Positions 2,010 to 29,807 of a stretch of DNA of 59,956 bases are shown here, in pieces (position 1 is the first letter of the stretch; each line of letters begins with the position of its first letter). Below the pieces are notes generated by a model. It searched no databases and was not told the DNA's origin. It saw only the letters and a list, made by a program, of their open reading frames with translations. The stretch comes from Escherichia phage vB_EcoS_ESCO3: sequence record OM386652.1. One strand, 5' to 3'. Made by a program: the position numbers and the translations under genes.

Positions 2010-3007
2010 AGACGAAATCCTACAATTACCCCACGTAGATTTTCACCATAAAAAATAATAGGAGTTGAAAGACCCCTTTCGTCCTTTTCATTGAAACGAG
2101 AAGCATCCCAATTCGTTGCAAGTCCTTTCAACTGCATAATAAGATCTATATTATACACGCCAATTGACTTAGATTCCCGGAACATTGCACTAGCACCGTC
2201 CAGCTCGTTGTAATGGGTACGCACAACACCATTTTCCATGTAAATACGCCCATCCCGCTCACAGAACGGTTTTATCTTTTCTAGGCAATTAAAAAGCTCA
2301 GTATCAAGCGTATAAACGTTGGCCCCATTTTCTGTACGCTCAATTATCTTATCAATGTTAGGCCACTTTAATTCCAGCAATTGTGTACGCAACCAGCAAC
2401 CGTCTTCGTAGTGAAATGTCATACTGGTATCTGTACATTGAATTCTTACTGGTGGTTTTTTAATACGCAATAATTCTTTTATGGCCATGCGTGGCACAAC
2501 ACAATCGACAGGGAATACAGCACCGAACCAATACTGTATAATACTAGCGTTATTGGTCGCGTACATGCTGCCCTGTTTTACCAGCACGCCGCAAGACCAC
2601 GGGCGGGAAGCATCATCGCTTATAAACGGCGTTACACGGCTTAAACCGTTGAGAAAAAGCTGACCGTCTATTTCGTGAATTGTTCCTTCTGGCTCTACGT
2701 GTGCAGTTGGTTTCTGAAGAGTATCCACACTAACCTTAAAGCCACCAGACTTAATGCTCAACTTACCGTTCGCTAACATTGTCATCTGTACAGCTTCGTC
2801 ACATGCTGCAATAGCCTTGAGCATCGGTTCAGCTTTAGGAGTACAGTCAATATTCAGTGGTACTGGACTACACAATGAAATAGTTCCGTTGAACCCGCGA
2901 ACAGTGCCATCAACAATACGGAAGTGAGTTAAACCTTCCTGAAGTTCTTTCTTAGCTACAGAGCCTGATACGAATTTAAGCGCGTCTAATAATTCAATCA
3001 CAAGCAA
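2006..3007 (-). CDS. putative sliding clamp (DnaN/beta-clamp-like) polymerase accessory protein
   Basis: 333 aa. N-terminus (LLDALKFVSGSVAKKE...DGTV) and C-terminal ...VGFRL resemble the bacterial beta clamp (which ends MPMRL). Translationally coupled to the polymerase gene. Weak, by-eye similarity only. Confidence 0.4.
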   Translation of the reverse strand: MLVIELLDALKFVSGSVAKKELQEGLTHFRIVDGTVRGFNGTISLCSPVPLNIDCTPKAEPMLKAIAACDEAVQMTMLANGKLSIKSGGFKVSVDTLQKPTAHVEPEGTIHEIDGQLFLNGLSRVTPFISDDASRPWSCGVLVKQGSMYATNNASIIQYWFGAVFPVDCVVPRMAIKELLRIKKPPVRIQCTDTSMTFHYEDGCWLRTQLLELKWPNIDKIIERTENGANVYTLDTELFNCLEKIKPFCERDGRIYMENGVVRTHYNELDGASAMFRESKSIGVYNIDLIMQLKGLATNWDASRFNEKDERGLSTPIIFYGENLRGVIVGFRL

Positions 3008-3533
3008 ATTCCTTATGTAATTTTGACCTAGTGAATTTCACAAAATTGTATGCTTTTTGCAAACCTTCCCAACTATATGGAAAACGTCTTCTTATTGTTT
3101 TGCCTTTAAATGTGATTCTAGCATCCCAATATGTATATCCACTAACGTCCAACTTTGAAATACCCTTTAGACCCGACGACCTATTATTACTTTGTACACA
3201 CCTATTACAATTATTCTCGGAATAGTTTGCAGCTCGCAAATTAGAAGGTCTATTATCTGTTTTTACTCTATTTATATGTTCAACGTGGGCTGGGTAATAC
3301 CCATGTGACATACAGAAACAGAGTCTATGAACTCTATAATTTTTATAAAGCAAGCCAACTTGCAGATAACCGTCCGAAGCTATACTACCAGCCGGAGAAC
3401 CTGCTATACAATTAGGAGCCCTTGTTATCCTGTTTATTAATTGTCCTGTATTCCTATCATAAATAAAGAATTTATCAAGTATTTCTTTACAAGGTTCATC
3501 AGACTGTATTTCAAAAGGTCTTGAGAGATCCAT
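2994..3533 (-). CDS. HNH homing endonuclease
   Basis: 179 aa. His/Asn-rich HNH core (YRVHRLCFCMSHGYYPAHVEHINRVKTDNRPSNLR) and a C-terminal basic DNA-binding-like region. AT-rich relative to its neighbours. Confidence 0.65.
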   Translation of the reverse strand: MDLSRPFEIQSDEPCKEILDKFFIYDRNTGQLINRITRAPNCIAGSPAGSIASDGYLQVGLLYKNYRVHRLCFCMSHGYYPAHVEHINRVKTDNRPSNLRAANYSENNCNRCVQSNNRSSGLKGISKLDVSGYTYWDARITFKGKTIRRRFPYSWEGLQKAYNFVKFTRSKLHKEFACD

Positions 3534-10798: not shown

Positions 10799-12757
10799 TT
10801 ACCAGTAAGAATAGGTTGATNAGNNGNANAANNGNAATACTGTCGTACGGGAATCAGTCTGCTCATCTTCATCAAACTTATTCGTATAACTGCCACCAAA
10901 CTGGGACAGACCATTCATTGCTGCAATTTGTACAACCGGACGTTCGTTTGTTGCTTCTTTCTTACCGAACTCACTACCGTCATAACAACTATTCAACACT
11001 TCGGGGAACTTACCCTTCAAGTTGACATAAATGTGCGTCGGTACACGAAGCTGGCTGACCACATTGAGGGCTTCGTCAATGTTAGCTGGGATTGCCAAGC
11101 TGCAATGCTCGCGCCACCAGTTACGCGCTTTCTTACCTGCAAAGCCAGTATGGAACAGGCAGATGTATTGTTGAATAGTTTGTGAGCCACAAAGATAATC
11201 AACACGAAGTGTCGGTGGCTTAGAACGGTCACCCCTGTTCTCGTGACGATAGTAACTCACCATATCAACTTTCAACACTTCAGTAACTGGTAAATCATTC
11301 TTGATAATAGCTTTCGTACTTGCACTCGCCATCAGTTTCTTCTCAAAAGTAAACTCATGACCGCAATAACCAGCACGACACGCTTTATTATTTGTAATGG
11401 TATAACCTAATCCTTGTAGATAGAGTATTTCTTCATGAGACATGCTGCTTGTGTCGAATGGTTTTAACCCACCACAGTAGCGAACTGACGCATGGTTCCA
11501 TGTCTTACATACCGGGCATTCTTTGACAGGTGCAGCGGATTTTCCTTTCTGTCCTGGACGCTTAGGAATTACAGGGTCGTTAATAGGCCCAAGACGTCTC
11601 GTATTGCCTGCGTAATCCAATACAAGACAGTTCTGTTTGTGCGAAGCCGAGATAGCTTGCAAACGACCTTCCGTTGTGGTCAGATCAAAACCATCAGCAT
11701 AATCAGGTCGAGTACCACGTCCAAGCATTTGAACCCATAGGCGGGAAGATTGAGACGGTCGCATACCAATTATTAAGTCAAGACCCGGATGGTCAAAACC
11801 TGTCGTTAATACGTTGTTGTTCGCTATTGCCTGCAAACGACCAGCTTTAAAGTCAATAAGGTACTGGTCACGCAAGGCTTTCGGTGTATCACCAGTTACA
11901 ACTTCACAACTAATACCGCGCTCATTGAGATAGTCTTTGACATCTTTTGCATGGTCTACACCAGCGCAAAAGATAAGCCAACTCATTCTATTCTCTTCTT
12001 CCGCAATACTAATTGCATCATCTAATAAATGGCGCGTTACATCAGGGTCATTTACAACCTTCTGAAGTTCACTTTCAATGAACTCACCGCCTCGAGTATG
12101 AACACCACTTACATCATACTCTTTCTTTGTTTTACGTGGTACTAACGGAACCAGATAACCTTCATCAATGAACCAGTTGAAGCACTCTACGGTACACGCG
12201 TTAAATACAATTTCATCAAATAGAGCGTTAGGTGCATAATCATCCTTGATAATAGAACCAAAACCAAGACGCCAACTTGTAGCAGTGAGACCGATAATCT
12301 TTAGATATGGATTCTTTTCACGAATCTGCGCAAAGAACTTCTGATAACTTGTTTGCTGATTTGGACTAATAAGGTCACATTCGTCAACTATAATAATATC
12401 AACGTCCTCAAAGTATTTAGCTTGTTTTGCAACAGACTGAATACCTGCGAACGTTATCATTGCGTTCTTATCTTTGCGACCCATACCAGCACTATAAATA
12501 CCAGTCGGTGCTTCAGGCCACAACTTCTTGAATTTATCGTGGTTCTGGTCTATCAATTCTTTTACGTGAGTAATTACCATCATGCGGGTACTACCCCAAT
12601 TATCATGAATTGTCTTTAATAGACCAGCAATTACAAGGGACTTACCAGTCCCTGTAGGCAACAAGATAACAGGATTTCCTGACTTTTCACCATGCTTGAT
12701 GAAATAGCGCAATGTACTATTTACAGCTTCTTGCTGATAATCACGTAGTTTGAACAT
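10799..12757 (-). CDS. SF2 DNA helicase (DEAD/DEAH-box type) with C-terminal Cys-rich region
   Basis: 652 aa. Walker A LLPTGTGKS, DExD box IIVDECDL, arginine finger QMLGRGTRP. The 3' end of the gene spans ambiguous bases (N at 10821-10835), so the C-terminus is uncertain. Confidence 0.7.
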   Translation of the reverse strand: MFKLRDYQQEAVNSTLRYFIKHGEKSGNPVILLPTGTGKSLVIAGLLKTIHDNWGSTRMMVITHVKELIDQNHDKFKKLWPEAPTGIYSAGMGRKDKNAMITFAGIQSVAKQAKYFEDVDIIIVDECDLISPNQQTSYQKFFAQIREKNPYLKIIGLTATSWRLGFGSIIKDDYAPNALFDEIVFNACTVECFNWFIDEGYLVPLVPRKTKKEYDVSGVHTRGGEFIESELQKVVNDPDVTRHLLDDAISIAEEENRMSWLIFCAGVDHAKDVKDYLNERGISCEVVTGDTPKALRDQYLIDFKAGRLQAIANNNVLTTGFDHPGLDLIIGMRPSQSSRLWVQMLGRGTRPDYADGFDLTTTEGRLQAISASHKQNCLVLDYAGNTRRLGPINDPVIPKRPGQKGKSAAPVKECPVCKTWNHASVRYCGGLKPFDTSSMSHEEILYLQGLGYTITNNKACRAGYCGHEFTFEKKLMASASTKAIIKNDLPVTEVLKVDMVSYYRHENRGDRSKPPTLRVDYLCGSQTIQQYICLFHTGFAGKKARNWWREHCSLAIPANIDEALNVVSQLRVPTHIYVNLKGKFPEVLNSCYDGSEFGKKEATNERPVVQIAAMNGLSQFGGSYTNKFDEDEQTDSRTTVXXXXXXSTYSYW

Positions 12758-17452: not shown

Positions 17453-17770
17453 TTATTGCAAAGATAAAGATACAGTAATAAAGTTTCTTACCTGAATATC
17501 ACTACTTACATTCCTGTCAACCATTGTGGATTCTACGAACTGCATTACCTCCTTCGTAGACATACCTGATTCTAAAGATGTTCTTGCAGCTTTACACAGA
17601 CCGATGCTAGTCTTAATAACGTTATCGATATACTTCTTATCAATATTGTAACGCTCATTCTTAATAAGAATGTCTTTATTTACAATACTTGAAACAGTTT
17701 CACAATTGAACGTATATGCGTTCGCGTTGAAAGATACAACCAATCCTAACAAAACAAGTAGCTTTTTCAT
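17453..17770 (-). CDS. hypothetical secreted protein (signal peptide)
   Basis: Start placed at the ATG at 17770 with an AAGGAG ribosome-binding site. N-terminus MKKLLVLLGLVVSFNANA resembles a Sec signal peptide. AT-rich gene. Confidence 0.45.
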   Translation of the reverse strand: MKKLLVLLGLVVSFNANAYTFNCETVSSIVNKDILIKNERYNIDKKYIDNVIKTSIGLCKAARTSLESGMSTKEVMQFVESTMVDRNVSSDIQVRNFITVSLSLQ

Positions 17771-17842
17771 TTCTAGCTCCTTTTTTCTTAATGAGGGTAT
17801 GTTACCCAACTAAAACGTTGATGTAAATACCCTCGGAGCTTA

Positions 17843-19905: not shown

Positions 19906-20147
19906 TAGTGTAGATTCTCTTTAGGTTGTTCTTCGCTCGTCATAAGATGAGCTAATACGCTGCATGTGTTTGATTTCTGCCAGGCTTTCTCAATTTCATC
20001 TAACGAGGATTCTGGTTTACATAAGCGATAGGCTTCCATGAAGGAATTCTGGGCTGCTTCAATGATTGCCAGAGACACTAACACTCTTTCGTCTATCATC
20101 GTCATCATTTCTTCACATTTATCACACATATTATTTCTCCAACTCAA
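19905..20147 (-). CDS. hypothetical protein (Cys-containing, small)
   Basis: 80-aa ORF; start/stop overlap with neighbours. Confidence 0.4.
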   Translation of the reverse strand: MSWRNNMCDKCEEMMTMIDERVLVSLAIIEAAQNSFMEAYRLCKPESSLDEIEKAWQKSNTCSVLAHLMTSEEQPKENLH

Positions 20148-20352
20148 TAATGTTTAGAATAATAACAACATCAAAGGAATTTGATTCTTTAAGGTGTTGA
20201 ACAATACCTTCAATCGTGTCCCTGCTAATATCCGGAGCCTTTACAAATACATGCCCAAATCCTGGGGATATCATGTGACCTTTGTGATAACTATAAGATA
20301 CGAAGAACTCCCTCGTCTTTTGTTCACAAACTACTAATTCTTTATCTGTCAT
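20131..20352 (-). CDS. hypothetical protein
   Basis: 73-aa ORF in the leftward block. Confidence 0.4.
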   Translation of the reverse strand: MTDKELVVCEQKTREFFVSYSYHKGHMISPGFGHVFVKAPDISRDTIEGIVQHLKESNSFDVVIILNIIELEK

Positions 20353-20959: not shown

Positions 20960-21190
20960 ATGACTCACCAAGATCTTATAAAAAGAAACATCAGAACTGC
21001 AATGAACAAATCAGAGGAATTCTCACATAACTGTACCGATGGTACTCATAAAATTAGATATGAATATATGGGATCCTCAACTGTGGTCACATTTGAGAAA
21101 GATGAGTATCACGTTGGAGATTTTTCAACACCAGATTACGACGAGATGTTTGAATACGTTGTATGTGGGTTCTTAGAGTTGCACGAATAA
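20960..21190 (+). CDS. hypothetical protein (lone plus-strand gene inside the leftward block)
   Basis: 76 aa. GGAGGAA ribosome-binding site before the ATG; followed directly by a strong intrinsic terminator. Confidence 0.45.
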   Translation: MTHQDLIKRNIRTAMNKSEEFSHNCTDGTHKIRYEYMGSSTVVTFEKDEYHVGDFSTPDYDEMFEYVVCGFLELHE

Positions 21191-21194
21191 TATA

Positions 21195-21222
21195 ATGGGC
21201 GCATATAGCGCCCATTTTTTTT
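21195..21222 (+). terminator. rho-independent terminator
   Basis: 8-bp stem ATGGGCGC / GCGCCCAT with loop ATATA, followed by a T8 run. Confidence 0.65.
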
Positions 21223-23770
21223 ATAGCTTAATAATCTTCTCCATGCGTTCGATATCCACTAAATAACACTTCATCCTCGGTGGTACAAAATCAGGACCGA
21301 ATAAACTTGAGAAGTCCATAGGCCTCATTTCAGCAAGAACTTCCATAGACATCAGACCATAAATTGTATTGTCTATGACCTGCAATATGTTGTCGTTTCT
21401 TGTCTGCTTGAACGCTTTAAATTGCCTACAATAAGTACATAAATCACTCCGTGTAACTATAAACGAGTCCTTAAACATTGGGAATTTATCATACACATAA
21501 GCCTTCACTTCCCCGTCCAAGAACCTTTTTATAGTCGCGAGCATTATCTTCTCACGGCTTGTACTGTCTGTAGACCCAATTTGCCCACTATTACGCTTCT
21601 CTAGGAAACGCTCGTTACCCTGATCGATAAATGACTCAGCCCAACGATAATGTTCCATAGTAACAACGGGTCGTTCACTGTTATCCGCAACAGCAAGAAG
21701 AGAAGCTATACGCAATACCTTCAACGCCTTCCTTGTGTACATCTGACGAATTACTTCGTCTTGCACCTGCTCACCATCATTGCCGCTGTTCAGGAACTTC
21801 GCAACAACATTATCAAGATTATCAAACGCTTCGTGTACCTCTGCTTCCATTTCAACATAACACGGAGCAGTCCCTGACATAATGCGCACAGCTTGTTTAT
21901 AGATAGCTCCAATAGTGCGCAGAATTGCTTCTGGATATTCCAGGAGCATACTCTTATTCATCAACGGGCGGTTAGCTGTACATTCCCATGCGATAATACG
22001 GGACATGAAGCCACTAGACATCATACGGTCATCCACGTTCCCGTAAAATTCATCTGGTGTCGTTTCACCTGCAAAACTATACGCCTTGACCTTACCGCCA
22101 GCAGTCGTATTATCTTTACTAGAGTGCTTTGAACCGCCAGAGAAAGCATAGAAATGCCCCTTGTCATAAAGGGAAAGCATTTCATCCATAATGTCTTTAG
22201 CTTTACCGACTTCCATCTTACCGTTACGGAAAAACGCACCGACTTCAGTCTTATAGTTAATGGATGAGCCACAAGACATAACGGATGTATCCATTATGAC
22301 GTCCTTGCGCAATGCAGCATCGGACGCATAGGTACTTGTATCTAAGACACGTTCAATACCAAATATCTGCTGGCCATCTTGACCGCCATAATTGGATACT
22401 TGAGAAAGAATAGTTTCAATGTTAGAGCGAAACGCTTCTTTACCAATACCAGAACGCGCAATTAATACAAAGTAGTTATTCAGACCACTTCGTGTGACTG
22501 TGTTCCACGCCTTACCGCACATACCACTAAATAAAGCAAGAGCAGACAGAATACTAATGTCTTTAATAGGCAACAAGCTCGCTTTATACATGTTACGCGC
22601 AACCTCACCCATAAAGCCCGGAGGCCAAGCCAAACCGTCTGCCTGCTCTTCAGTGTAATTGCCATCTGTGGTCAACACTTCTTCAGGTGGGCGTTCTGGT
22701 GTAGTTGCTTGACGTAGTTTTTCCGTGCGCTCTATAGCTGCATTAACGTTATTCTGAACTATCTGCATAAGTCCCATAGATTTAACATGGGCATCATAGC
22801 GATAGTTGCGAATCATTCTATCCAGGTGATACGGACGTTTGATTTTTTCACCAGGCAGACGACGGGAATCATCGTAACGACTACTCATTGGTGAATACAT
22901 GAACAGACGTCTTACCTGGAAATTGTACTTACTCTTAAAGCAAAGAAAGTCAATTAATGCAAACTCTGCTTCAGACTGAGAAGGGAAACAACGTTCGCCA
23001 ATAGAAGTATCAACTTCTTCAGCTCTCCAACGACCTTCCCATAGCTGCTTAAACAATGTTCCGTTTTCTTGTTCGCACAACTGAATATAGACATCCTGGT
23101 CTTCCATTGCATATGGGTCGTTACTAAAATCTTCTTCAGTAAGTTCCAGCATTTGGAAGCCGTCTGACTCATTAATCTCACTCATCTCAGACATAAGTTG
23201 ATGAATGAGATTAGCGATATACCCTTCGCTTTCACTGCCTGGAGCACCAGACACAGTGCGCGGAGTAATATCCCAGTGATCGCCTGTACAGATAATAAAA
23301 CGATACTGTGAATACACTTCCACACCATCACGGCGCTTACCAGCCTGAGGGATGGAATAAATCCATGTGTGCAACCCATCACCGCTTCTGGAAATTTCCG
23401 TATAGCTATGGAACGATTCAACAATCTTCTTATATCGCTCACCAGCAACTTTCTTTTCCATTTCAGACATGGTATCTTTAATGTCCATGTCGATACAACA
23501 GAACGGGTCACTTGGAAGTAGATAGAAACCTAAACGCAAGTTATGGCCAATCTCGTTATAATAACGAACGCAGCGTTCAGCATCTTCAAAAGACATAAGT
23601 AAATGCAGGTTAGACGGTTTCTTATCGTTACCGTCTTTACGAAGTGGGACCATATCCCCTAAATCATCGTCCCATACATAAGGTTGTTTTTCTGATGATG
23701 TACCCGGATGGAAACCGCAGACAGCCCACTGTTCGTATTGTTTAATTTCTTGAGGAAAAAGTTCCAGCAT
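21221..23770 (-). CDS. putative DNA primase (AEP primase-polymerase domain) with C-terminal NTPase-like region
   Basis: 849 aa. N-terminal AEP-like motifs CCIDMDIKD (DxD) and SRSGDGLHTW (SGxGxH); later a P-loop-like ARSGIGKEA. Domain assignment is by eye. Confidence 0.5.
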   Translation of the reverse strand: MLELFPQEIKQYEQWAVCGFHPGTSSEKQPYVWDDDLGDMVPLRKDGNDKKPSNLHLLMSFEDAERCVRYYNEIGHNLRLGFYLLPSDPFCCIDMDIKDTMSEMEKKVAGERYKKIVESFHSYTEISRSGDGLHTWIYSIPQAGKRRDGVEVYSQYRFIICTGDHWDITPRTVSGAPGSESEGYIANLIHQLMSEMSEINESDGFQMLELTEEDFSNDPYAMEDQDVYIQLCEQENGTLFKQLWEGRWRAEEVDTSIGERCFPSQSEAEFALIDFLCFKSKYNFQVRRLFMYSPMSSRYDDSRRLPGEKIKRPYHLDRMIRNYRYDAHVKSMGLMQIVQNNVNAAIERTEKLRQATTPERPPEEVLTTDGNYTEEQADGLAWPPGFMGEVARNMYKASLLPIKDISILSALALFSGMCGKAWNTVTRSGLNNYFVLIARSGIGKEAFRSNIETILSQVSNYGGQDGQQIFGIERVLDTSTYASDAALRKDVIMDTSVMSCGSSINYKTEVGAFFRNGKMEVGKAKDIMDEMLSLYDKGHFYAFSGGSKHSSKDNTTAGGKVKAYSFAGETTPDEFYGNVDDRMMSSGFMSRIIAWECTANRPLMNKSMLLEYPEAILRTIGAIYKQAVRIMSGTAPCYVEMEAEVHEAFDNLDNVVAKFLNSGNDGEQVQDEVIRQMYTRKALKVLRIASLLAVADNSERPVVTMEHYRWAESFIDQGNERFLEKRNSGQIGSTDSTSREKIMLATIKRFLDGEVKAYVYDKFPMFKDSFIVTRSDLCTYCRQFKAFKQTRNDNILQVIDNTIYGLMSMEVLAEMRPMDFSSLFGPDFVPPRMKCYLVDIERMEKIIKL

Positions 23771-23779
23771 GTTATTACC

Positions 23780-24016
23780 TTAAAACGTAGCGGGATTAAT
23801 TTCAAATAACGAACGTGATGGTACAACATCAAAGTTGACATCTACCAGCTTAAAAGAATTCGTGTAAACACACCATGTACCGACTTTTTCATTAAAGACG
23901 GGCTTGTCATTATTAAATGCGTACACGCAACCATCAGAATCTGTTGCAATATATCTTGTGTCTTTTGGTACTTCTACATCTGAACCATAATAGTGAACGG
24001 TAATTAAATCTGACAT
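23780..24016 (-). CDS. hypothetical protein
   Basis: 78-aa ORF. Confidence 0.35.
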   Translation of the reverse strand: MSDLITVHYYGSDVEVPKDTRYIATDSDGCVYAFNNDKPVFNEKVGTWCVYTNSFKLVDVNFDVVPSRSLFEINPATF

Positions 24017-24090
24017 GTTATTCTCCTACGATCCATTAGGACACACATAGTATATACTGATGGATCGGCAGGGGGCTAACCCCCTGCAAA

Positions 24091-24504
24091 TTATGGTACT
24101 AAGACCCAACGACAGGCGATAGGTTTACACATTATCTCTTCTTTAGAGATGTTTATACGATCCTTAAAAATAATTCTTGGATAAAAATATTTCATATAGT
24201 TATCAGAAGCTGCCTTATATTCGGTCTTTAATATACGTGCGCTAACAACAAATTTTAAATCTTCCCAATCTTTCATAGAGTCAGCAAAAGACAAGATACG
24301 CCCATTTCCACGGACTTTTGCTGAAGACTGAGAAGGCAACTTGTGGTTAATATCACATGGTAGATCTAAGGATTTATCTTTAAAGAATTTACTTCCACCA
24401 TTAAAAAATTTACTCACATCAAAAGAGCCAATTTCTAAAGTATGGATATTTTGACCTTTAATTGGTTCTTCAAACTTAACATCAACAACAAGTTTAACTA
24501 GCAT
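24091..24504 (-). CDS. hypothetical protein (AT-rich, likely acquired gene)
   Basis: 137 aa. Visibly lower GC than the flanking genes; GC-rich hairpin (24069-24089) just downstream. Confidence 0.45.
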   Translation of the reverse strand: MLVKLVVDVKFEEPIKGQNIHTLEIGSFDVSKFFNGGSKFFKDKSLDLPCDINHKLPSQSSAKVRGNGRILSFADSMKDWEDLKFVVSARILKTEYKAASDNYMKYFYPRIIFKDRINISKEEIMCKPIACRWVLVP

Positions 24505-24518
24505 AACTTACCCTATAA

Positions 24519-24788
24519 TCACCATAAAATTTCTACACTTTCAGTATCCATCTGACTCAATGGTTGCGTATATGAGATTGTATATCCAAATGATACCAGT
24601 TGTTCAGTCACCTTTCTCATTACAGGACGTGCATTAGGACTACCAATTTCACTATATGGCTTTTTAAATAATTTAATATGATCCCTGCCATCTAGAGACG
24701 CTTTAGTAATCCATTTATCCAAATCATCAAGATATGCACCGGTATCCAAGTTTTCACTATTTGTACGGGCTTCTTGTGCTGTAATCAT
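24519..24788 (-). CDS. hypothetical protein
   Basis: 89-aa ORF, AT-rich. Confidence 0.4.
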   Translation of the reverse strand: MITAQEARTNSENLDTGAYLDDLDKWITKASLDGRDHIKLFKKPYSEIGSPNARPVMRKVTEQLVSFGYTISYTQPLSQMDTESVEILW

Positions 24789-24790
24789 GA

Positions 24791-25015
24791 TTATTGCTCC
24801 ATAGCTTGTTTGATCAATGCGTCATGGATAAGTTTCGCAGTAGACGCGTTCCACAGTTGTTCGTCTGTCTGAACTTCCTGGTTCCATTGCTTATCAAATA
24901 GTCCTTCTTCATACGCATCTTTGATACGCTTGCATAAAGTAAGGATGTCGGTCTGAAGAATATCAATTTCTTCTTGAGTTAACGTAGTTTGGAGTTCTTT
25001 ACTCATCTTTGCCAC
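24791..25015 (-). CDS. hypothetical protein
   Basis: 74-aa ORF. Confidence 0.4.
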   Translation of the reverse strand: MAKMSKELQTTLTQEEIDILQTDILTLCKRIKDAYEEGLFDKQWNQEVQTDEQLWNASTAKLIHDALIKQAMEQ

Positions 25016-25391
25016 CTTCTTTATTCAGTTGACCACATGCTGGTGTCCATTGGCCGTTCAATGTGCGCTTAAGATCATCTTTGCGCATACGCTCGAACCA
25101 TTCAGTGTGGTCATGTGGATTGTCGCTTACTTTATAGTCAATATTAACACACGTTTCTTTGAAATCCATACCTTCCAGGTCCACGTCATAACAGATGTCG
25201 ATTTCAATACCCGGCTCAGTTAATACCCAAAAACCATCGCCGTCAATACATTCACACCACTGAGGTTCATTCTCAAACGCGGTTAAAGTACCGTCCTCGT
25301 CGACAGCAAGGTATTTCGCCCACACTGGAACAAACAACACTTCACCGAAGTATCGCACAGCCTTCTGAGTAAGATTAATTTGCATCTTCAC
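24999..25391 (-). CDS. hypothetical protein
   Basis: 130-aa acidic ORF. Confidence 0.45.
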   Translation of the reverse strand: MKMQINLTQKAVRYFGEVLFVPVWAKYLAVDEDGTLTAFENEPQWCECIDGDGFWVLTEPGIEIDICYDVDLEGMDFKETCVNIDYKVSDNPHDHTEWFERMRKDDLKRTLNGQWTPACGQLNKEGGKDE

Positions 25392-25728
25392 CTCCCGATA
25401 CTAGTTCCAAAGTCTCACGAAGCAGACGCTCGAGCTTCGATTTATTTTTGATAAGCTGATATTGACGATCCACCACAAGCGCCTTCTGACGGTTACGCAT
25501 AAGGTATTCGAACGCACCTTGAAAATCTTCGACTTTACCTTCATAACCTAGAGCCTTGGCAACGTGCGACACACGATGGAACAGAAAGTCCGCCGCGTCC
25601 ATAATTTCCATCGCATTGACAATAGCGTCAAGTAAATCAGGATTTGTATTCGGGTCAACCTTTTTAGCTTGTTCAAGAAGTCGCACCTTTGCTTTATATA
25701 AAGGTGAATTGCTTACTGTTTGCATCAC
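25375..25728 (-). CDS. hypothetical protein
   Basis: 117-aa ORF. Confidence 0.45.
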   Translation of the reverse strand: MMQTVSNSPLYKAKVRLLEQAKKVDPNTNPDLLDAIVNAMEIMDAADFLFHRVSHVAKALGYEGKVEDFQGAFEYLMRNRQKALVVDRQYQLIKNKSKLERLLRETLELVSGGEDAN

Positions 25729-25994
25729 TTCCTCCAGATATCACGCGATTCTTCAATACGGATGTTGTACCGTATAAGTTGTTGCATAACTTTATGCAGG
25801 TTATCGAGATGCTTCCTTAAACGAAGACGTTTCTTAATGGCCCACAGGTTCTTCATATCCGTTTTTTGGAGCTCCTCCCTTAAATACAATGAAAAGTCAG
25901 TCTGGTGATCCAAGATAAATTGAATACGCATCAAAGTATTCGACTTACGATAATCCGGATACCACTTAGGAAGAAGATCTTGTTCGTAAACCAT
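25725..25994 (-). CDS. hypothetical protein
   Basis: Start placed at the internal ATG at 25994 (MVYEQDLL), which abuts the upstream gene stop at 25996. The track ORF extends to 26192 in overlap. Confidence 0.4.
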   Translation of the reverse strand: MVYEQDLLPKWYPDYRKSNTLMRIQFILDHQTDFSLYLREELQKTDMKNLWAIKKRLRLRKHLDNLHKVMQQLIRYNIRIEESRDIWRK

Positions 25995-25995
25995 C

Positions 25996-26613
25996 TTACG
26001 CTCCAAACTGATCAATGTATTCAATGAGTTCTTGCAATTCTTGCTGTAACTGCACATTACCACTATTATTCGTCTGAAGTCTAACGAGGCGTTCTTTGAT
26101 ATGTGTAATGTGGTTAGCACCCATCCGACGCTTCTGTACATCACACCAATGAACAACACCATCTTCAATATATGCACGACGCGCTTTACCACGCGGGTAT
26201 CGCAACGGCCTAATCTCGCACTTATCGTCCACCCACTTAAAGCCCAGGATCATAACACCGTTGCCTTCCGTATCAGGGCACACGTCAAAGCAACTGTTGA
26301 ACCCTTTACTGCGCATGTACTCGTCGAGCGGAATTACCTTATCGGGCGACAACCATTGATACCCGAAGTAAATGTCAACAGTGAACATCATCCCCAACAT
26401 CGGAGCCGACCAGCACATATACACTCGCCCGTCATCCAACTTCTTGACCGCATTCGGCCGCAGCACGAGGCCAGCCGCCTTCCACGCTTTGACCACATTA
26501 ATTGTGTTGTCCTGCTCTTGGAATATTGCGTCTGCTTGCATATATGTAGGCGCGTCCCAGCCAAACATTTCCTTTACATGAGCATTAGTGATTTCAACCC
26601 TTTGATTGCGCAT
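25996..26613 (-). CDS. hypothetical protein (first gene downstream of the large non-coding region)
   Basis: Start placed at the internal ATG at 26613 (MRNQRVEIT). The track ORF's N-terminal extension runs into AT-rich repeat DNA and is unlikely to be coding. Confidence 0.45.
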   Translation of the reverse strand: MRNQRVEITNAHVKEMFGWDAPTYMQADAIFQEQDNTINVVKAWKAAGLVLRPNAVKKLDDGRVYMCWSAPMLGMMFTVDIYFGYQWLSPDKVIPLDEYMRSKGFNSCFDVCPDTEGNGVMILGFKWVDDKCEIRPLRYPRGKARRAYIEDGVVHWCDVQKRRMGANHITHIKERLVRLQTNNSGNVQLQQELQELIEYIDQFGA

Positions 26614-27589
26614 AACCTCACCCTTGATAATAATAAATCGACTGATTTTGAAATTCAGTTGCCGGTTTATGTTTATTTTTACGCAGTGTGTTTTGCAATG
26701 CAATATTGATATATTTTGTCTTTGTATTGCAATGTTTTTGTATTGCAAAAATTACAACAGTCTGAAGGTGAGAAATTGTACATTTATAAAGATCGGTGAA
26801 AAAATGCACAATTTATAAAGATGCCGCAACATACGAAACGGCGAAGCGAAGTGTATGAAAAATAAGGGAAAATTTTGAGGATTGGGAGGTTTGTATGGGT
26901 TTATATTATTTATAAAGGGGTCCCGTAGGGGTCGTCAGTAGACAACTCAAAAACAAAAAATCTTTATAAAATTTATATAAATACACACATACACACACTT
27001 TTACCTTATTTTTCATGCACTTACCCCCTTTCATTTCGTACATTAAGCGACTATATATGAGCAATATGACATATATTTGTTGCGCAACGACTGTGTGTTT
27101 TCTAACCAATCGAAAGATTGCTTTATATACGTCCGCGCGTCTAACACAAAAGAAAAGTGGATTGCAAGCGATTTTTGCTGAGGTAACTCTCGAAGTGAAA
27201 GCGATTTGCGAGTTTGAAATTTTGTAGCCCGAAAACGATTCTATTTTATGGTATAAATGTCGGATTTTTCGGTGAAAGCGAGCTTTTTGGTGAGGTTGGG
27301 TGGCTGGGAACGGTGTAACTGGTAGCCCATAAAGCGAAAATAGCCGCGAAAACGGGGCACGCAGCGCGATTAAATGGTTGGATCAGTGTAAGGGTGGCGG
27401 TGAGGGGCGAAAATGCCGCAAAATCGCTTACAGGGATGCAGGGAGTGGATCGCTGTAAGGGCGTATAAGGCGATTAAATTGGAGTCTATGGTAATGTATG
27501 GAAGAAGGATTCAGGTTCTTAGAGCGCGAATGGTGGAGCTATGGGTGAGGAATATGTGGTCAGCAGGGTAGCGCGGGAGGTGGTGCGGG
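26614..27589. promoter_or_regulatory. large non-coding control region with multiple short direct repeats
   Basis: About 1 kb with no ORF of 60 aa or more in the track. Direct repeats TTTGTATTGCAA (26721-26732, 26737-26748), ATTTATAAAGAT (26782-26793, 26811-26822; further TTTATAAA copies near 26907 and 26961), GCGATTAAAT (about 27365 and 27470) and TGTAAGGG (twice). Plus strand is strongly purine-rich from about 27280 to 27600. Confidence 0.5.
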
Positions 27590-27629
27590 TACAAAAACGA
27601 AAGCGCCCCGTTGGACTTCAACAGGGCGC
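27590..27629 (-). terminator. rho-independent terminator for the leftward early operon
   Basis: Inverted repeat GCGCCCCGTTG / CAACAGGGCGC (one mismatch), which on the minus-strand transcript is followed by UUUCGUUUUUGU. Lies just downstream of the stop of gene 27653..27901. Confidence 0.65.
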
Positions 27630-27652
27630 GGACTGTATAATGCAGTTAGAAG

Positions 27653-29501: not shown

Positions 29502-29807
29502 TTATTGTTGAATAGCTTTAGCTATCATTGTGATGAAGCAGAACACAGACCAAANGCTATTCGCTTGGCATACTGGGCGACCATACATTACGCTATAAGA
29601 GCTGACAGTGCCGTCTTCGTTAATGCGAACGTATAACGCGGTGCTGGAATATTTTTCGTTGCCCGGGAGCATTACCAGATACTCATCGAAATCCCAATCC
29701 CCGTCAACCTTTTCCGCTGTAAGGCCCAGCTGATGCAGGCGCTTGCCGATAATGCGCTTAGTAATCTGAGATTGGGACATGGAACGCGGTAAGTAGATAA
29801 TGGACAT
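29502..29807 (-). CDS. hypothetical small early protein (family A, copy 2)
   Basis: Start placed at the ATG at 29807 (MSIIYLPRS) with a GGGAG ribosome-binding site; the track ORF extends to 29861. Contains one ambiguous base (N at 29565). Confidence 0.45.
   Translation of the reverse strand: MSIIYLPRSMSQSQITKRIIGKRLHQLGLTAEKVDGDWDFDEYLVMLPGNEKYSSTALYVRINEDGTVSSYSVMYGRPVCQANSXWSVFCFITMIAKAIQQ

Follow-up and report, generated by a model that had tools for sequence, protein, structure and literature searches.

Is the AT-rich block of small genes at positions 23780-24790 of the window (the whole analysed stretch of 59,956 nucleotides from Escherichia phage vB_EcoS_ESCO3, OM386652.1) a piece of horizontally acquired DNA, and could it carry anti-defence or host-modulating cargo? 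Both ideas were put forward in an earlier note, according to which the proposal would lose its ground if a GC plot showed no deviation and the genes proved to be core in all relatives.

Genomic context

The window is the genome of a Nonagvirus (Queuovirinae; 9g/JenP1-like). A megablast search with positions 23000-26000 retrieved 17 near-full-length Nonagvirus records at 90-96% nucleotide identity, with no other genus among these. The matches include JenP1, JenK1, JenP2, 9g, SE1, BRET, SP8, HdSG1, HdK1 and PD328, together with the BASEL phages ChristophMerian (Bas19) and FritzHoffmann (Bas20).

The block comprises three genes (g89, g137 and g78) on the minus strand, inside a long leftward unit. 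[quoted passage not shown] In order of transcription, the genes considered here start with g117 (25375-25728), g130 (24999-25391) and g74 (24791-25015), all on the minus strand, followed by g89 (24519-24788; 89 aa, acidic with a pI of 5.0) and g137 (24091-24504; 137 aa, basic with a pI of 9.2). A 74 bp intergenic region (24017-24090) with two abutting hairpins then leads to g78 (23780-24016; 78 aa, acidic with a pI of 4.4). Directly downstream of the block, at 9 nt from the stop codon of g78, starts the gene for an 849-aa AEP-primase/DUF3987 helicase (21221-23770, minus strand), which is labelled DNA primase/helicase in the records of relatives. A bidirectional terminator (21194-21216) is located after this gene.

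Base composition and coding potential

The AT-richness claimed for the block was borne out by both sliding-window GC and GC3. Over 83 ORFs compared, g137 has the lowest GC of all (0.324; 0.359 for g89 and 0.354 for g78, against 0.438 for the window), while its neighbours range from 0.427 (primase/helicase) to 0.40-0.44 (upstream genes). The 698 bp between 24091 and 24788 rank at the 0.09th percentile among windows of equal size and contain the global GC minimum of the window (at 24121). A similar pattern is obtained for GC3: with 0.233 for g89 (the lowest of all ORFs), 0.246 for g137 and 0.278 for g78, against a mean of 0.398 (sd 0.070), the block genes make up three of the four lowest-GC3 ORFs, and the probability of their being adjacent by chance is ~0.0035. 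Given that GC3 is low too, the AT bias of the block is not merely an amino-acid effect. The fourth ORF is an HNH homing endonuclease (2994-3533; GC 0.348, GC3 0.239), an internal positive control showing that a low-GC3 signature marks mobile DNA in this genome. Considered as a recently acquired moron or genomic islet, the block displays the compositional deviation of such elements, having the lowest GC and GC3 of the window.

Other short AT-rich ORFs without assigned function are present at 17453-17809, 20131-20352 and 20960-21190. AT-richness is common to short ORFans generally and is no proof of foreign origin.

Purifying selection acts on g137 (dN/dS 0.05-0.16 among relatives) and g89 (dN/dS mostly 0.10-0.33, and 0.76 in one pair with only 8 substitutions), which shows that both genuinely code for proteins. 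Within the block, g78 evolves most slowly, with few changes at a protein identity of 96-100% across Nonagvirus and a nucleotide identity of 97.5-100% between the window and its relatives. Judging from this conservation, all three ORFs are real genes. An interpretation of the AT-rich block as replication origin was rejected, since it is fully coding and under purifying selection; a better non-coding candidate is located at 26750-27650.

Presence among relatives

All three genes occur in the same order and position in 12 out of 12 distinct Nonagvirus isolates. Of the 9 IMG/VR loci that g78 retrieved, all 9 have the block at the same position and the hairpin as well. A partial deletion of g89 in phage 9g is the sole structural exception among the isolates, and apart from this deletion no presence/absence polymorphism was observed in the 12 isolates and 9 loci. 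Because the block is present in all Nonagvirus examined, it is core at the genus level and any acquisition predates the genus; its presence at one and the same position suggests that it was fixed before the known members diverged. The presence/absence comparison thereby goes against the earlier proposal: core genes in the relatives examined are one half of what the note had named as speaking against acquisition, the other half being a GC plot without deviation.

Signs of a recent insertion were searched for as well. No donor lineage was found among 5.8 billion proteins or by a profile search of 1.84 billion representatives. Flanking direct repeats of the block were not found either, and our scan yielded no promoter/terminator pair bracketing the block genes.

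Transfer of g89 between genera

Homologues of g89 in Seuratvirus are 30-36% identical and of exactly the same length, the family always measuring ~89 aa. An enlarged profile gave matches only on roughly 58-62 kb Queuovirinae-type contigs, from which the family appears to be confined to Queuovirinae. Within Nonagvirus, dS is 0.04-0.12 in most pairs, and a 65-70% identical allele with a dS of 0.79 is carried by JenP2 (65%, a third allele) and some metagenomic phages. Phage 9g has an in-frame 195-bp deletion that leaves a 24-codon remnant, which implies that g89 is dispensable. Truncated variants are also present on full-length metagenomic contigs.

The Seuratvirus SA126VB carries a g89 of the Nonagvirus type, with 84% protein and 89.6% nucleotide identity to the window, against 47% nucleotide identity to the resident Seuratvirus allele of CAjan. 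The swap is exact from ATG to TGA, and the immediate flanks are nearly identical to CAjan (94% over 300 nt downstream). SA126VB thus provides a clean, base-precise, ORF-for-ORF cassette swap between two phage genera, and on this alignment g89 has demonstrably moved between genera as a cassette. The transferred gene has kept its low GC (0.34, with a GC3 of 0.24) and the native Seuratvirus allele has a GC of 0.42, so that composition follows the allele lineage rather than the position. No stronger argument is available for the idea that the AT-rich alleles evolved in, or came from, a different background.

It might be argued that foreign origin is not needed: the block could have evolved in place, with an AT bias due to weak codon selection or mutational bias and with old, standing allele variation. 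The fixed position of a genus-core block, the lack of a donor in 5.8 billion proteins and the AT-rich short ORFs elsewhere in the window all fit such a scenario. It accounts poorly for a Nonagvirus-type g89 that remains at GC 0.34 even inside Seuratvirus, for an AT-rich g78 that is nonetheless the slowest-evolving gene of the block, and for an inter-genus transfer of g89 that is directly documented. We consider in-place evolution unlikely, though it retains real weight. It is compatible with the account that we favour below, as the two are not mutually exclusive.

Two ancient alleles of g137

The product of g137 is a soluble protein with a computed mass of 15.8 kDa. No relatives outside Nonagvirus were found by tblastn. 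A search of 5.8 billion proteins returned only 15 clusters, all at least 72% identical, and in an exhaustive HMMER search of 1.84 billion representative proteins the g137 profile retrieved its own family only. As far as these collections tell, g137 is an ORFan family restricted to Nonagvirus. Loss of the gene was never seen among the Nonagvirus examined.

Two ancient alleles exist, an A type of 137 aa and a B type of 132 aa. Compared with the window, seven phages (B allele) have a nucleotide identity of ~81% and four (A allele) one of 91-97%, with PD328 in between at 87%; dS between the alleles is 0.9-1.1, against ~0.06 in g78. The divergence is limited to 24115-24420 (minus strand; codons ~29-130), where identity to the B type is ~81% and the flanks are 97-100% identical. 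The first 28 codons are identical in all sequences examined except one, and the sequence downstream of g137 is nearly identical among relatives. PD328 is chimeric, with one half of 24115-24420 being A-like and the other half B-like. With the most variable patches set aside, dS remains at 0.6-0.8 and dN/dS at 0.05-0.09; inside the patches the synonymous sites are saturated, and for this reason positive selection there is not demonstrable. The alleles differ in length by 5 aa, owing to a 21-nt tandem duplication (24380-24421, minus strand; SKFFNGG/SKFFKDK) in a variable loop.

Phage 9g has a primase protein 99.8% identical to that of the window, yet a B-type g137. Similarly, g78 of HdSG1 and ChristophMerian is 100% identical to that of the window and their g137 shows only 81% nucleotide identity, as in 9g. 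On these comparisons the allele type of g137 is independent of the genome backbone. More generally, deeply diverged g137 and g89 alleles are shuffled among genomes that are otherwise 93-100% identical, and the alignments show both genes acting as exchangeable cassettes, through homologous recombination in conserved gene ends or flanks.

The idea of horizontal acquisition thus holds in part. The block is an outlier in GC and GC3, g137 is genus-restricted, and g89 is both dispensable and has moved between genera; on the other hand, the block is fixed in the genus and a donor is lacking.

The independent assortment of alleles also bears on another explanation, in which g137 together with g78 would aid the primase/helicase (as loader, regulator or origin-binding factor) and the AT-richness would be incidental. 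The location directly upstream of the primase/helicase, the 9 nt between g78 and the primase start, the 96-100% conservation of g78, the presence of the block in all Nonagvirus genomes and the basic pI of g137 (9.2) are all consistent with a replication accessory. Homologous primases, however, are present in 300 phage records and g137 in Nonagvirus only, and the equivalent slots in Seuratvirus hold non-homologous genes. Moreover, g137 alleles with a dS of ~1 assort independently of a primase that is 97-100% identical, which is unexpected for a co-adapted partner (per segment, primase identity of the window to its relatives is 94-98%). A role in replication therefore seems to us quite unlikely.

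The intergenic hairpins

The GC-rich hairpin described just downstream of g137 is real, but its coordinates are 24068-24087 instead of 24069-24089. On the coding (minus) strand, this first hairpin (GCAGGGGGCTAACCCCCTGC, occurring once in the window) begins 3 nt past the stop codon of g137. Its perfect stem of 8 bp, 7 of them G:C pairs, closes a 4-nt loop (-17.1 kcal/mol as RNA). Counting stems of 8 bp or longer with 6 or more G:C pairs, the window has 4 such hairpins, against 0.3 in shuffles. Adjoining the first hairpin is a second, imperfect stem-loop (24029-24067, minus strand; CGATCCAT...ATGGATCG, or CGAUCCAU...AUGGAUCG as coding-strand RNA) of -15.4 kcal/mol, whose end lies 2 nt ahead of the AGGAG that serves g78 as ribosome-binding site. 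The combined fold of both hairpins reaches -33.5 kcal/mol (z = -3.46), with 0 shuffles being as stable.

The intergenic region is 96-100% conserved in 12 relatives. The first hairpin is kept in all of them, varying only in the loop and, by single-base changes or indels, in the G/C run, and the second is nearly invariant, with rare substitutions in the unpaired loop or bulge. Compensatory changes were absent among these relatives. The earlier reading of the hairpin as the flank of a mobile unit is contradicted by its location, namely in a highly conserved intergenic region and outside the recombination block of g137. An assignment to a known RNA family or repeat was likewise dismissed (no match in Rfam; sequence unique in the window).

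The first hairpin could in principle be a Rho-independent terminator of the accessory transcript, with g78 and the primase being expressed from an intergenic promoter. A stable GC stem-loop 3 nt past a stop codon is what would be expected in that case, and a TATACT -10-like hexamer lies within the second hairpin, 21 nt downstream of the first; the counterpart spacer in Seuratvirus contains a TTGCAA-18-TATAGT arrangement. A U/T tract is absent on both strands, however (CGAUCCAUC on the coding strand, AAATTATGG on the other), the terminator scan of the window did not call the hairpin, and every other intergenic GC hairpin of the window has A/T-rich flanks. In addition, no promoter in 24017-24090 satisfied the 9-of-12 criterion of the scan. 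The first hairpin is thus a GC stem-loop but not a canonical Rho-independent terminator, and we give the terminator scenario a small chance.

In Seuratvirus the primase is likewise preceded by a small ORF and a ~60-bp spacer. This spacer folds as two abutting hairpins, of which the second sequesters the ribosome-binding site, and the gene upstream of it is hypervariable within the genus (44-100% identity) and not AT-rich. From its position and conservation, the hairpin pair in the window may be an intercistronic RNA element, serving either to protect or process a 3' end or as a leaky stop that depends on a factor; part of an internal promoter is a further option. The pair would then mark the junction between variable accessory genes and the invariant g78-primase unit, and not the edge of a mobile element.

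Searches for function

For none of the three block genes was a match obtained in the curated families of Pfam, NCBIfam and PADLOC, and their PHROGs matches are limited to families of unknown function; none of the four libraries is a dedicated anti-defence catalogue. A match of g78 to phrog_19703 is among the PHROGs matches; a domain of ~45 aa (phrog_1972) is common to g78, g130 and proteins of phiEco32-like coliphages. Pfam and PHROGs gave no nuclease or other mobility function in the block. With g137, a sequence-profile search of the PDB gave 0 matches at E-values up to 10, and a Pfam match to TmcA_N (E 0.014, below the cut-off) was taken as noise.

Genes in similar locations were compared as well. 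The 248-aa Seuratvirus gene in the slot equivalent to that of g137 shares aligned PxCxIxH and KYxxPxI patterns with it, in residues that are not conserved in the Seuratvirus family, and homology was rejected (BLASTP E 0.46, hhalign 0.15%). No similarity was found between g137 and a 130-aa 'putative DNA binding protein' of CAjan, encoded after its g89 homologue, or between g78 and the 67-aa Seuratvirus ORF before the primase.

An AlphaFold2 model of g137 was built from 16 near-identical sequences and is of modest to low confidence (pLDDT 68, pTM 0.61). It shows a long N-terminal beta-hairpin, more strands, one helix and a C-terminal strand, and its low-pLDDT segments coincide with the variable segments of the protein. 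A Foldseek search of this model against viral models gave nothing significant. Structure prediction and a fold search of the 137-aa protein, proposed earlier as a check, assigned no fold or function. In the alignment 84 out of 137 columns are invariant, including Cys50, His54, Cys126 and Cys131. That these four residues form a metal site is only a suggestion from their conservation.

One specific candidate was a divergent 2H phosphoesterase of the Acb1 type, which would destroy or bind cyclic-oligonucleotide immune signals (anti-CBASS or anti-Thoeris-like). T4 Acb1 (gp57B) has both defining motifs (HSTI and HITL), whereas the two H-x-T/S catalytic motifs of the 2H fold, of which each lobe carries one, are absent from the g137 family alignment. 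All that this family offers is H21-T-L, in which P0015 has Y for H, and H54-K-L, and its C-terminal half lacks a conserved His. As hhalign gave a probability of 0.4% for g137 against gp57B, and a Pfam 2H family match was not found, membership of g137 in this family was rejected. The phosphoesterase scenario is very improbable; a 2H/Acb1-like fold is a weak lead from the model, and would be at most a degenerate, non-catalytic version.

For the proposed anti-defence or host-modulating cargo, no support was obtained from family models, PDB sequences, fold searches or literature. A literature search on Nonagvirus anti-defence genes or the locus tags gave no results, and papers on AbiA and KpAvs2 in which Bas19 and Bas20 appear do not refer to the block genes.

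A model for g137 and g89

As to what the two variable genes do, we put forward a reading to which we give about an even chance: g137 and g89 would encode accessory proteins of early infection that interact with the host, and would be kept as exchangeable allele cassettes. Within the early (leftward) transcription unit of Nonagvirus, the block would be an accessory segment restricted to this lineage, from which both genes deliver non-essential proteins, made early, for host takeover or counter-defence. Their mode of action would probably be stoichiometric binding instead of catalysis. For g137 we envisage a conserved beta-rich core, possibly stapled by the putative metal site, that presents the hypervariable, low-confidence segments (residues 29-46, 55-61 and 86-100). 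The coexistence of old g137 alleles might then reflect different host targets.

A more far-reaching version, which we regard as a long shot, combines several of these elements. Here g137 would found a new counter-defence family, being either a catalytically dead, possibly zinc-stapled 2H/Acb1 derivative or an unrelated beta-fold, with hypervariable loops that sequester a host immune component or signal and with two alleles directed against different host variants. The acidic, winged-helix-like g89, which crosses genera, would be a second, independent inhibitor.

Among the early genes of the genome, none is more foreign in composition or more recombinogenic than g137 and g89. The practical value of this observation is modest. 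Since Nonagvirus includes Bas19 and Bas20, which are widely used for defence-system tests, the two genes are reasonable first candidates for differential defence sensitivity within the genus.

Comparison with known systems

Accessory 'moron'-like or ORFan early genes of phages are typically AT-rich and lineage-restricted, and many turn out to be host-takeover or anti-defence proteins. The block genes resemble this class in being short, AT-rich at all codon positions, narrow in range and part of an early operon, in having no detectable homologues, and in the dispensability of g89 in a viable isolate. They differ from it in that the block is not patchy among close relatives but fixed in the genus, and lacks its own promoter/terminator pair. 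The HNH homing endonuclease of the window, a bona fide mobile class, shares the compositional signature of the block, which unlike this gene encodes no nuclease or mobility function.

An example of intercistronic hairpins in phages is given by T7 early mRNA with its RNase III processing sites. As with such hairpins and with terminators, a stable and conserved stem-loop pair is located between cistrons of a polycistronic early unit; unlike intrinsic terminators the pair has no U-tract, and its sequence is unrelated to the T7 R sites and has no match in Rfam. In comparison to the Acb1/2H phosphoesterases (T4 gp57B, PDB 7t27, 9q2y), g137 misses both the H-x-T/S motifs and any profile similarity.

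Closest in population behaviour are the receptor-binding-protein loci, for which a limited allele repertoire is common to Drexlerviridae, Dhillonvirus, Nonagvirus and Seuratvirus (PMC8594841). Both cases combine a fixed slot with deeply diverged alleles that recombine independently of the backbone, also across genera. The block proteins differ in being early and non-structural, and g137 has only two or three allele classes in one genus. Overall, the block does not represent a new type of system but an accessory locus of a kind that is ordinary in phages.

Results and discussion

One exchange concerns g89 (24519-24788), one of the three AT-rich minus-strand genes of the block together with g78 (23780-24016) and g137 (24091-24504). 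When the homologue of g89 in the Seuratvirus vB_EcoS_SA126VB (L013 4001-4270) is compared with that of CAjan (L014 4001-4270), a member of the same sister genus, the ORF is seen to have been replaced as a unit, with base precision, by an allele of the Nonagvirus type. The sequence directly bordering the swapped ORF in SA126VB matches CAjan almost exactly, so that this is a cassette swap between the two genera.

An internal control for foreign DNA is provided by the 179-aa HNH homing endonuclease on the minus strand (2994-3533; PF13392, phrog_99), since its composition (GC 0.348, GC3 0.239) carries the same signature as the g78/g137/g89 block. Short AT-rich ORFs are furthermore found at 17453-17809 (GC 0.333) and 20131-20352 (GC 0.347), both on the minus strand, and at 20960-21190 (GC 0.359). 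The last of these lies on the opposite, plus strand, directly past the bidirectional terminator downstream of the primase gene.

The early operon that holds the block has other indel hot-spots as well, both in the window (25728-25996) and in Nonagvirus relatives: SP8, JenP2, BRET and PD328 possess an additional gene that is about 340 bp long, encodes 110-113 aa and lies between the g117- and g89-sized genes, and g130 of JenP1 shows an indel of 57 bp.

Within the leftward early region, about 900 bp (26750-27650) are devoid of a convincing ORF. The AT-rich half of this stretch (GC 0.355) contains three copies of TTTATAAAGAT (26783, 26812 and an inverted copy at 26960) and an imperfect inverted repeat of 34 nt with arms at 26849-26882 and 26989-27022. 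It is followed by a half with a strong G skew (27201-27600, GC skew +0.45), in which TGGATCrsTGTAAGGG is repeated at 27379 and 27446. Copies of AAGCGATTT occur at 27163 and 27196 and, inverted, at 27421, and the region is closed by a terminator-like hairpin (27603-27629). An Rfam search of 26750-27650 returned noise only. We consider the region a candidate origin or regulatory region.

Ambiguous bases (N) number nine in the window: eight are scattered over 15 nt (10821-10835) near the start of a 652-aa ORF (10799-12757), and the ninth is at 29555. The public records of the relatives 9g, SE1 and HdK1 have problems of annotation or sequence. For 9g the g78 homologue lacks an annotation and the primase is entered as two CDS; in SE1 and HdK1 the primase is broken into three to four CDS, suggesting frameshift errors.

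Comparison with other phages

Upstream of the primase, the Seuratvirus WildeMaa (L028 2483-3494) and loci L030-L033 of that genus have a small ORF (67 aa in Seuratvirus) and a spacer, an arrangement also seen in the window. The Seuratvirus spacer folds as two abutting hairpins, the second of which covers the Shine-Dalgarno sequence. Among members of the genus, the gene upstream of this spacer (242-260 aa) is hypervariable, with identities of 44-100%; it has a normal GC content and is unrelated to g137.

In the window, g78 has the phrog_1972 domain, with its YxAxDxDG...F-like motif, in common with the N-terminal region of g130 (24999-25391); phiEco32-like coliphages (about 76 kb) and PTXU04 possess this domain as well.
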